Virus genome (UHGV): UHGV-0123627
From: a virus
Direction: 5' to 3' (one strand)
Length of the DNA stretch: 38,813 nt
This document shows positions 6,563 to 9,573 of the stretch, one piece after another (positions within the stretch are counted from its first letter, which is position 1; every line of letters starts with the position of its first letter). The notes beneath the pieces were generated by a model that saw only the letters and a program-made list of their open reading frames with translations, made no database searches and was not told where the DNA came from. The position numbers and the translations under genes are program-made.

Positions 6563-6931
6563 TCAGGCGGCTTTGATAGTCATATCATCTGAATCAAATA
6601 TTCCTGATGTATCGATATCGGTAATTCTTATTCCTTCGCTACCATCCATTGGAGGCCATCCTTCCTGACCATTTCCATCATTCCAGTCGAACTCACACAC
6701 AACACCATATGCATTTAAGTCGCTTGAAATTGCTATAAGCAGAGCATGTTGCGCCAGCATGATTAATACAGCATTTAATACAGAGCCGTGTTTATTGAGT
6801 CGGTATTCAGAGTCTGACCAGAAATTATTAATCTGGTGAAGTTTTTCCTCTGTCATTACGTCATGGTCGATTTCAATTTCTATTGATGCTTTCCAGTCGT
6901 AATCAATGATGTATTTTTTGATGTTTGACAT
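6563..6931 (-). CDS. ea10: Lambda Ea10-like protein
   Basis: 122-aa ORF MSNIKKYIIDYDWKASIEIEIDHDVMTEEKLHQINNFW... at the lambda ea10 position and length. Confidence 0.85.
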   Translation of the reverse strand: MSNIKKYIIDYDWKASIEIEIDHDVMTEEKLHQINNFWSDSEYRLNKHGSVLNAVLIMLAQHALLIAISSDLNAYGVVCEFDWNDGNGQEGWPPMDGSEGIRITDIDTSGIFDSDDMTIKAA

Positions 6932-7134
6932 CTGTTCATATCCTCACAGATAAAAAATCGCCCTCACACTGGAGGGCAAAGAAGATTTCCAATAATCAGA
7001 ACAAGTCGACTCCTGTTTAGTTACGAGCGACATTGCTCCGTGTATTCACTCGTTGGAATGAATACACAGTGCAGTGTTTATTCTGTTATTTATGCCAAAA
7101 ATAAAGGCCACTATCAGGCAGCTTTGTTGTTCTG

Positions 7135-7314
7135 TTAACCAAGTTCTCTGGCAATCATTGCCGTCGTTCGTATTGCCCATTTATCGACATATTTCCCATC
7201 TTCCATTACAGGAAACATTTCTTCAGGCTTAACCATGCATTCCGATTGCAGCTTGCATCCATTGCATCGCTTGAATTGTCCACACCATTGATTTTTATCA
7301 ATAGTCGTAGTCAT
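7135..7314 (-). CDS. ral: Ral (restriction alleviation), C-terminally truncated by an ochre codon at position 60
   Basis: Translation MTTTIDKNQWCGQFKRCNGCKLQSECMVKPEEMFPVMEDGKYVDKWAIRTTAMIARELG then TAA. The in-frame continuation CAG AAC AAC AAA GCT GCC TGA encodes QNNKAA, the C-terminus of 66-aa lambda Ral as remembered. No ORF of 60 aa or more appears in the track here, consistent with truncation. Confidence 0.7.
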   Translation of the reverse strand: MTTTIDKNQWCGQFKRCNGCKLQSECMVKPEEMFPVMEDGKYVDKWAIRTTAMIARELG

Positions 7315-7384
7315 ACGGATAGTCCTGGTATTGTTCCATCACATCCTGAGGATGCTCTTCGAACTCTTCAAATTCTTCTTCCAT
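7298..7384 (-). CDS. Small ORF (28 aa), lambda orf28-like
   Basis: ATG with GAGGTGA upstream; acidic peptide MEEEFEEFEEHPQDVMEQYQDYPYDYDY; overlaps the ral start. Confidence 0.4.
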   Translation of the reverse strand: MEEEFEEFEEHPQDVMEQYQDYPYDYDY

Positions 7385-7438
7385 ATATCACCTCAAATAA
7401 GTTGTTTGCTGCGAAAGTAAATACGCTTAAGTTACCTG

Positions 7439-7576
7439 TTATTTATCCCACCAAGTTCCGTATCTATCTATCCAGTTACACCAATCATCGACACTCCATT
7501 TTGTTGTGTCGCATTTTGGCAACTGGCATGAATATCTACCTTCTTTGTAAAGTCGGCGTTTGACTTTCTTGAGCAT
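7439..7576 (-). CDS. Small Cys-containing ORF (45 aa), hypothetical
   Basis: ATG 8 nt after the N stop with GAGGTG upstream; MLKKVKRRLYKEGRYSCQLPKCDTTKWSVDDWCNWIDRYGTWWDK. Sits where lambda carries sieB. Confidence 0.3.
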   Translation of the reverse strand: MLKKVKRRLYKEGRYSCQLPKCDTTKWSVDDWCNWIDRYGTWWDK

Positions 7577-7584
7577 GGCTCACC

Positions 7585-7917
7585 TCAATCGTAATAAGCT
7601 GGAATTGATTTTCCGCGTTGCTTCTGGCGGCCTGAGCAAGTCACACCCATTTCACAGCGTGGCTTGCTGTACCATGTGCGCTGATTCTTGCGCTCAATAC
7701 GTTGCAGGTTGCTTTCAATCTGTTCGTGGTATTCAGCCAGCACCGTAAGGTCTATCGGATTCAGTGCGCTTTCTACTCGTGATTTCGGTTTGCGATTCAG
7801 CGAGAGAATAGGGCGGTTAACTGGTTTTGCGCTTACCCCAACCAACAGGGGATTTGCTGCTTTCCATTGAGCCTGTTTCTCTGCGCGACGTTCGCGGCGG
7901 CGTGCTTGTGCATCCAT
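7585..7917 (-). CDS. N: Antiterminator N (lambda-like variant)
   Basis: Internal ATG of the track ORF gives MDAQARRRERRAEKQAQWKAANPLLVGVSAKPVNRPILSLNRKPKSRVESALNPIDLTVLAEYH..., with the arginine-rich motif; C-terminus differs from lambda N. Confidence 0.9.
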   Translation of the reverse strand: MDAQARRRERRAEKQAQWKAANPLLVGVSAKPVNRPILSLNRKPKSRVESALNPIDLTVLAEYHEQIESNLQRIERKNQRTWYSKPRCEMGVTCSGRQKQRGKSIPAYYD

Positions 7918-8027
7918 CTGGATTCTCCTGTCAGTTAGCTTTGAGTAACGCGCCGTGATGCTTATCTCCACGGTTGCTGTCTTGCAGCTGCATTTCGCGC
8001 TACTCAAAGCCTTCTGCTTTGAATGCT

Positions 8028-8058
8028 GCCCTTCTTCAGGGCTAAATTTTTAAGAGCG
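8028..8058 (-). promoter_or_regulatory. nutL (boxA CGCTCTTA + boxB GCCCTGAAGAAGGGC)
   Basis: Minus-strand reading gives CGCTCTTAAAAATTTAGCCCTGAAGAAGGGC, the lambda nutL boxA and boxB hairpin. Confidence 0.8.
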
Positions 8059-8090
8059 TCACCTTCATGGTGGTCAGTGCGTCCTGCTGA

Positions 8091-8170
8091 TGGCTTAAAA
8101 TTACAAGAAAGATTGTATGTTGTAAACAAGAAATATTGTAAAAATGGGCGTGAAAAACAAACTCCATTGT
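8091..8170 (-). promoter_or_regulatory. pL promoter region with three 434-type OL operators
   Basis: Three 14-bp ACAA-N6-TTGT sites (about 8103-8116, 8126-8139, 8157-8170); the minus-strand leader ATCAGCAGGACGCACTGACCACCATGAAGGTGACGCTCTTA matches the lambda pL transcript start. Confidence 0.75.
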
Positions 8171-8220
8171 TTTTAAACGTAAAATAGTTTGTTTTTTGGT
8201 TGTCGAAATCGAGGTGAGGA

Positions 8221-9573
<1,353 letters not shown>

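Follow-up and report, generated by a model that had tools for sequence, protein, structure and literature searches.

Does the short interval between the antiterminator gene N and orf28 in the virus genome UHGV-0123627 hold a gene, and what kind of protein would that gene encode? The question was raised by a 45-codon open reading frame (ORF) at positions 7439-7576 of a 38,813-nucleotide (nt) stretch of this genome, which is referred to here as the window; coordinates are those of the window, and the features described are on its minus strand. An initial annotation had placed this ORF in the N-ral interval, codirectional with N and with a Shine-Dalgarno (SD) sequence just after the N stop codon, and had suggested that it could specify a small zinc-binding protein coexpressed with N. 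The ATG-initiated frame was found with exactly the translation quoted there, in an interval of 200 bp (7385-7584) running from the N stop to the orf28 start, and the gene order on the minus strand was N, the 45-codon ORF, orf28 and ral, all in one direction. The ORF begins 8 nt past the N stop and has a GAGG 6 nt ahead of its ATG, as part of a strong SD sequence, GAGGTGA, which overlaps the N stop codon itself. Five Trp residues were present, in agreement with the several that had been described, but the four Cys residues of the initial annotation were three when counted (C17, C22 and C33), and the peptide has no His. The length of the ORF alone was not beyond chance, as 62 ORFs of at least 25 amino acids overlap the surrounding 4 kb, and the argument for a gene is therefore one of homology.

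Homology searches indicated that the ORF truly codes for a protein, a member of the DUF5484/T4 gp55.4 family. The protein matched Pfam DUF5484 (PF17583) with a score of 46.7 bits (E value of 2.6e-12; cutoff of 27), with residues 5 to 42 aligning to positions 3 to 41 of the 43 in the model, and matched PHROG 1871 (phrog_1871) with an E value of 1.4e-22, with residues 1 to 43 aligning to positions 1 to 44 of 45 in that profile. No match was obtained for this protein in NCBIfam or PADLOC. Both the gene and its kinship with T4 are already known, as witnessed by the existing Pfam family and by the annotation of phage Sf6, in which a protein identical to the window copy (NP_958212) is described as "gene 36 protein, similar to phage T4 gene Orf55.4." SfI gp44 is the same gene with a one-residue difference (D44N), and the DNA is 99 to 100% identical across Sf6, SfI and the window. 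A tblastn search detected a match to the ORF protein in 1,037 phage records, about ten of which were lambdoid or P22-like; the rest were overwhelmingly T4-like, with approximately 45 to 54% identity, and came from phages of Escherichia, Klebsiella, Shigella, Yersinia and others. The gp55.4 sequence of RB32 is MNIKRMLFKQGLYTLNVTPKGDTTKWSVNDWIKFIDENGNWEI. Comparison with T4-type gp55.4 (UniProt P07080 in T4) detected approximately 50% identity over the full length, a common motif and the same predicted fold. As protein identity of around 50% was found in phages whose DNA the megablast search did not retrieve, the frame is conserved, which is the behavior of a genuine gene.

When the window protein, T4-type gp55.4 or an alignment of 51 sequences was the query of a word-indexed protein search, close relatives only and no multidomain architectures were returned. 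Such searches were too narrow to reveal the family, and an exhaustive HMMER profile search over 1.84 billion representatives was needed. This search yielded 55 clusters at 50% identity, nearly all of them stand-alone proteins of 40 to 75 amino acids. Two long profile matches, P0054 (1,118 amino acids, 21 matching stretches) and P0067 (828 amino acids), were judged to be repeat or low-complexity artifacts. Conservation was examined by column in an alignment of 48 family representatives. A set of 12 residues was conserved, with frequencies ranging from 32/48 for D31 to 48/48 for the invariant W32, and all 12 (K6, G13, Y15, P20, T24, W27, D31, W32, I36, D37, G40 and W42) are present in the window protein; K6, G13, P20, W27, I36, D37, G40 and W42 were conserved in at least 90% of the members. 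The initial annotation had named conservation in relatives as one way to examine this ORF, and the outcome was in favor of a gene: frame and motif are kept in lambdoid prophages and in T-even, T7-like and N4-like phages alike.

The gene was also found in prophages, being carried by 146 of 5,426 complete Escherichia coli genomes (∼2.7%), and the exact protein was indexed in 2,279 blocks of an assembly collection. The substitutions detected in prophage copies by DNA searches (K4T, V5I, R8L, Q18H, T25A, Y39C and D44N) all fall in variable columns. Despite this distribution, the PGAP annotation omits the gene in all six RefSeq E. coli genomes that were inspected, an omission in keeping with the lack of an NCBIfam model. 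Together with one prophage copy that is frameshifted at codon 39 and with truncated or recombinant C termini in the protein database, these omissions would suit a chance or decaying frame in an interval consisting mainly of a tL1-like terminator or spacer. Such a reading is scarcely credible and is effectively refuted by the homology data, since phages outside the megablast DNA matches keep both frame and motif at approximately 50% protein identity and the T4 homologue has been detected as a protein. Furthermore, the tL1 terminator, which the initial annotation had put forward as the alternative to coding capacity, was looked for in 7385-7585 and no terminator-like hairpin was detected; the RNA of the downstream spacer folded no better than shuffled sequences (z = +1.0); and an Rfam scan of 6900-8300 matched no family in the interval, giving only a subthreshold, RyhB-like chance match at a hairpin outside it (6979-6958).

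Three protein database variants (P0003, P0005 and P0006) had C termini that were replaced after residues 34 to 37. Taken together with the frameshifted copy, these swapped C termini suggest occasional decay of, or recombination inside, the gene. An unannotated DUF5484 member was also observed in Erwinia phage phiEt88 (NC_015295), where a region on the plus strand (2474-2620 of locus L019) encodes MNKRDMYKRGLYSCPTPTRDTSSWAVAKWIEWIDSHGKWSECDYDNAE. This gene is in the early-left operon near the repressor gene, but what is annotated in the database entry is gp44, an ORF that overlaps it on the opposite strand and is probably spurious.

The position of the ORF suggested that it is expressed with N. 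Coexpression, as had been proposed, is very likely on the evidence of the 8-nt spacing from the N stop, the SD sequence of the ORF itself and the lack of an intrinsic terminator between the two genes. No intrinsic terminator-like site was detected between N and ral, Rho-dependent termination being something that cannot be judged from sequence. The first terminator-like hairpins with U-runs on the pL strand were at 7122-7107, just after ral, and at 6979-6958, and both are probably tL2-type terminators. The second of these hairpins precedes a 122-amino-acid Ea10-like gene (6563-6931). The ORF would thus be on the same pL mRNA as N and be translated from its own SD sequence overlapping the N stop, and its product could be among the first proteins to be made after infection or induction, with no requirement for N antitermination. 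T4 gene 55.4 (P07080) is represented by both an early RNA and an early protein in RNA sequencing and liquid chromatography-mass spectrometry data (PMC9697503, Tables S2 and S4).

The zinc-binding proposal did not survive inspection of the protein. The three Cys residues are spaced as C-x4-C-x10-C, with neither a CxxC nor a CxxH pair and with no His to complement them, and the columns that they occupy are variable within the 48-member alignment. Column 17 is Cys in 21/48 members and otherwise L, F, V, M, I or Y; column 22 is Cys in 2/48 and otherwise mostly V or G; and column 33 is Cys in 2/48 and otherwise I, V, L or M. Cys is absent altogether from 13/48 members, including the T4-type proteins, whereas the lambdoid branch has three Cys residues and a WW doublet near the C terminus. 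Covariation did not support a paired site either, as Cys17 accompanied a Cys at column 22 or 23 in 6/12 cases, compared to 21/48 overall. No zinc-finger or zinc-ribbon match was detected in Pfam, where DUF5484 was the sole match, in a Foldseek comparison with the PDB or in a PDB sequence-profile search.

A structure prediction, another check that had been suggested, returned a confident small domain. The AlphaFold2 model, for which the family alignment was the input, had a mean pLDDT of 92.1 and contained no metal. The predicted elements are a helix (residues 3 to 12), a strand (15 to 17), a loop holding P20 and T24 to W27, a second helix (29 to 39) and a second strand (40 to 42). The model therefore describes, with high confidence, a helix-strand-loop-helix-strand domain of approximately 40 residues that is predicted to fold alone, and the many conserved aromatic residues would form the core of this very small domain. 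Structural matches in BFVD were to family members only, on which the model superposed with TM scores of 0.84 to 0.89 and root mean square deviations of 0.5 to 1.1 Å; no zinc fold was matched. Foldseek found nothing below an E value of 6 in the PDB, and thus no relative of known structure there, and the PDB sequence-profile search gave nothing significant, with only a chance match to TRIM9 (E value of 0.84). As the three Cys residues are at nonconserved positions, two of which (17 and 33) are otherwise hydrophobic, the fold is unlikely to be metal dependent.

It could still be argued that the Cys residues of the window lineage coordinate a metal or form a disulfide. There are three Cys residues within 45 positions, nearby Asp residues could give a fourth ligand, and one distant relative, P0069, the only such member, has Cys at columns 17, 23 and 33. 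On account of the pattern in P0069, there is still a slim chance that the lineage has a metal site or disulfide of its own. The column frequencies given above, the Cys-free members, the absence of Cys from the T4 type at 50% identity and the confident folding of the domain by AlphaFold with no metal all speak to the contrary, and we consider zinc binding or a disulfide very unlikely.

The setting of the gene differs between phage types, as the lambdoid copy directly follows N in the pL operon whereas the T4 copy is in the nrd-55 cluster. For the lambdoid setting, ten independent prophage loci, all encoding the identical protein, were read. The upstream sequence ended in GRQKQRGKSIP(A/T)YYD and a stop codon in 10/10 loci, and the called N-type gene ended 8 nt ahead of the ORF start in 9/10. 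The junction read GATTGAGGTGAGCC-ATG in 9/10 loci and GAGGTAGTC in the remaining one (L008). In the window, the C terminus of N (7585-7602) is GRQKQRGKSIPAYYD, with KSIPAYYD before the stop, as opposed to KSIPLI in lambda. This variant C terminus was present behind both the lambda-N type (Pfam N36) and a second, 101-amino-acid type of N (ESKQNRIYYRKPR). The genes 3' of the ORF varied and included orf28/ral in the window and, in other loci, Nmad5, DUF7446 followed by Gad1, an HNH protein, P22 GP17 and a 156-amino-acid protein.

A second junction was found on the other side of the ORF. Approximately 30 nt past the ORF stop, the sequence GCAGCAAAC(C/A)ACTTATTTGAG was present in 7/10 loci and in the window, and it corresponds to an HK544-type N 3' end (GSKPLI and stop) followed by an SD sequence. 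The element GCAGCAAACCACTTATTTGAG was kept in 7/10 loci with different downstream genes behind it. In HK544, N ends in GGCAGCAAACCACTTATTTGA immediately before the orf28 SD sequence, and in both HK544 and Sf101 N leads straight into this SD sequence with no gene between. The upstream copy of the junction is thus the working end of N, where 6 added nucleotides have turned PLI into PAYYD, while the downstream copy is a noncoding 20-nt relic. A degenerate copy of the same relic was observed in lambda just before orf28 (locus L004:540-600). As two diverged junctions, each consisting of an N 3' end, TGA and GGTGA, flank the ORF, it is a cassette of approximately 190 bp. A search for repeats inside the window did not report this flanking repeat, the exact part of which is only 9 nt (TTGAGGTGA) in copies that differ by an indel, and so the duplication was deduced by comparing the window with HK544 and with the prophage loci and not from an intrawindow repeat statistic. 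The usual features of a moron were not found, there being no promoter-like or terminator-like site flanking 7439-7576; with only an SD sequence of its own and a start 8 nt after the N stop, the gene is better described as an operon-embedded cassette than as an autonomous moron.

The absence of sieB, which had been claimed for this DNA, was confirmed by a tblastn search of the whole window with lambda SieB (best E value of 0.53). In RefSeq lambda, sieB is indeed between N and orf28 on the strand opposite N, so that it has the same insertion site as the 45-codon ORF, between the N 3' end and the orf28 SD sequence; it differs in strand, in length (184 amino acids) and in having an unrelated sequence. 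From these comparisons, sieB and the DUF5484 ORF appear to be alternative occupants of a single junction prone to recombination, and the N/orf28 stop-SD junction looks like a recurrent cassette-exchange site that can hold no gene, sieB or DUF5484. It also illustrates how cassettes may be swapped via short stop-SD boundaries. In one locus (L010:3195-4580), genes for a DUF7446 protein and for a homologue of Gad1 (anti-Gabija) were observed directly after the DUF5484 gene, and the segment behind the cassette is an accessory or anti-defense hot spot.

The linkage of the ORF to N raised the prospect of a transcription-linked role, in which the protein would cooperate with N or RNA polymerase, for example by stabilizing the AYYD-ended N or by modulating elongation or termination. 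The ORF strictly adjoins N-type genes of two families, always with the altered N C terminus, and the T4 gene is four genes upstream of that for the late sigma factor (gene 55). Nevertheless, the domain also occurs in T-even, T7-like and N4-like phages, which lack N, and insertion of a cassette inside the N 3' end/SD junction explains the linkage more simply. The polymerase fusion described below points in addition to DNA rather than RNA synthesis, and overall a transcription-linked role appears improbable. One preprint groups gp55.4 with "late transcription regulators," apparently just from the gene number.

The surroundings of the cassette suggested a different function, namely, that the protein binds and inhibits a component of host immunity (restriction, abortive infection or nucleotide signaling) and is made right after DNA entry in the manner of Ral and Gad1. 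It lies in a variable accessory segment of the pL operon, with ral as a neighbor in the window and Gad1, Nmad5, DUF7446 and P22 GP17 as neighbors in other prophages, and it stands in the place of sieB, an exclusion gene. Its distribution among lambdoid prophages is patchy (146/5,426 complete E. coli genomes), with lambda and HK544 lacking it. It would be among the first genes expressed, and its T4 homologues are early proteins. Anti-defense is the main alternative but is nevertheless unlikely. The gene is linked to N and not to the variable, defense-related genes; no catalogued family other than DUF5484 was matched, and the negative PADLOC result comes from a library of defense and not anti-defense systems; and retention in T4-like phages is very wide (∼1,000 records), unlike that of most narrow-spectrum anti-defense genes. 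A permanent fusion to a DNA polymerase would also be unexpected for a dedicated inhibitor of immunity.

This fusion was found in N4-like phages of the Cbunavirus group, in which the DUF5484 domain forms, in frame, the last ∼45 residues of the 903-amino-acid DNA polymerase A (Pol A) in 17 records, as distinct from the free-standing protein of the window. The carriers included Pectobacterium phages Possum, Nepra, CB1 and phiA41, Kosakonia phage Kc283 and Escherichia phage EK8, and one polymerase ends in KIKWAEAGAYKCPKPAEDTSKWKPKDWVKYVDAHGTWTGA before its stop codon. A profile built without the polymerase sequences scored them at 42 to 44 bits (E value of ∼1e-6 at Z = 1.8e9), while the Pfam model itself gave 17.9 bits for the polymerase domain, which is below the cutoff of 27. 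The Pol A of Possum (YP_010658737, residues ∼856 to 901) keeps G13, Y15, C17, P20, T24, W27, D31-W32, D37, G40 and W42. A possible beta-clamp-binding motif at Q18-L19-P20 was considered and rejected, as these columns are not conserved.

Free copies of the gene were also found near replication genes. A free copy is located between primase and DnaB helicase genes in Alteromonas phage H4/4, upstream of helicase and Pol A genes in one metagenomic contig and upstream of primase and helicase genes in another, and beside nrdH, nrdG and nrdD in RB32; in phiEt88, the copy in the early-left operon is next to the repressor gene. The neighbors in other contigs (SprT-like, RusA and DUF3310) were uninformative.

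The lambda pL operon is full of small host-modulating proteins, namely, Ral, cIII, Kil and Gam. In the T4 cluster, gp55.1 (acting on FolD and UvrA) and gp55.2 (an inhibitor of topoisomerase I) modulate host proteins and are both small and dispensable (PMC4396842). All of these neighbors are short, dispensable and early and belong to the same operon or cluster as the DUF5484 gene, and the characterized ones bind a host protein; they have no similarity in sequence or fold to DUF5484. By analogy, the ORF product most probably works like them. It would be a small protein that binds another one stoichiometrically and modifies it, as its neighbors do in both phage types, and the gene would be a dispensable fitness factor. 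The partner would most likely be tied to DNA replication or DNA metabolism, a class preferred because the same domain is permanently fused to Cbunavirus Pol A; the free copies adjoining primase, helicase, polymerase and nucleotide reductase genes would fit a replication-linked partner. Taken as a whole, the interpretation of a real early gene encoding a metal-independent minidomain that serves as a small binder, with a DNA replication or metabolism target as the preferred class, is one that we hold with roughly even confidence.

Several observations weigh against this interpretation. The ratio of nonsynonymous to synonymous changes in the recent prophage lineage was ∼7:3, which is not strikingly low, although the numbers are small, and the copy in E. 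coli PSS-11 (NZ_AP027694.1, ∼1412716-1412935) is frameshifted by a 4-bp insertion at codon 39. A Rho-dependent terminator may be present between N and the ORF, and early expression has been measured for T4 gp55.4 whereas that of the lambdoid copies, the one in the window included, is positional. A literature search for DUF5484, gp55.4 and PF17583 found no functional study and one passing mention. The variable genes flanking the lambdoid copies are mostly defense or anti-defense genes (Ral and Gad1), which favors the anti-defense alternative, and the SprT-like, RusA and DUF3310 neighborhoods are unrelated to replication. The link with replication genes is moreover confounded, as early regions also hold replication genes, and the polymerase fusion is limited to one genus-level group.

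A bolder version of the replication-linked reading is that DUF5484 is a portable module that docks on a replisome or DNA metabolism protein, being welded to the polymerase in Cbunavirus and produced as a free immediate-early protein in T-even, T7-like and lambdoid phages, where one conserved enterobacterial partner, common to them all (for example, the clamp, SSB, a topoisomerase or a repair protein), would be captured or redirected by it. We regard this version as rather doubtful. If true, it would make the lambdoid copy an unrecognized first-wave host takeover factor that is cotranslated with N.

The finding is in itself of little weight, as the gene has already been catalogued as a conserved hypothetical one and the zinc proposal fails. 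As far as the searches show, three elements are new, all of them modest: that the N-end junction is duplicated, that the gene is strictly tied to N while the genes behind it vary and that the domain is fused to the polymerase in Cbunavirus. The gene is nevertheless one of the very first expected products of the lambdoid phages that carry it, and yet it is routinely omitted from RefSeq E. coli annotation. The presence of the family in T-even, N4-like, T7-like and lambdoid phages and the confident ∼40-residue fold with no PDB relative make it a tractable target for structural and interaction studies, and the polymerase fusion provides a concrete, testable lead toward the function of T4 gp55.4.

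The coordinates of the features in the window and of two of the polymerase genes are collected in Table 1.

Table 1. Features at the N/orf28 junction of the window and polymerase genes with a DUF5484 end
Feature	Position	Strand	Basis or remark
N, antiterminator, lambda-N type	7585..7917	minus	Translation; Sf6p37 and SfI N annotated at equivalent place
SD sequence GAGGTGA of 45-codon ORF	7580..7586	minus	Overlaps last two bases of N stop TGA (7585-7587)
45-codon coding sequence	7439..7576	minus	ATG 7576-7574, stop TAA 7441-7439; DUF5484/T4 gp55.4 family; equals Sf6 gene 36
Relic of HK544-type N 3' end, noncoding (GCAGCAAACAACTTATTTGA, compare GSKPLI and stop)	7393..7412	minus	Alignment with HK544; closes the cassette on its downstream side; runs into orf28 SD sequence
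SD sequence GAGGTGA of orf28	7388..7394	minus	Same stop-SD architecture as junction of N and 45-codon ORF
orf28 homologue, 28 amino acids, acidic	7298..7384	minus	Lambda orf28 annotation; SfI gp43
ral (restriction alleviation)	7135..7314	minus	Annotation of equivalent genes in Sf6, SfI and lambda
Pol A with DUF5484 end	L016:391-3102		Pectobacterium phage Possum
Pol A with DUF5484 end	L018:675-3386		Escherichia phage EK8

The window as a whole is a mosaic lambdoid genome, with an early-left region similar to those of lambda and 434 and an immunity region similar to those of 434 and Sf6; the remaining genes, structural ones included, are Sf6-like. A 158-amino-acid ORF (8221-8697, minus strand) was also observed between pL/N and the 434-type cI gene (8622-9254), in place of rexAB. 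This ORF overlaps the 3' end of cI as listed, has a length of 134 amino acids when read from an internal Met and has a start that looks like a signal or lipoprotein leader. In Sf6, the counterpart position between N and the repressor gene is occupied by gene 38, of 134 amino acids.

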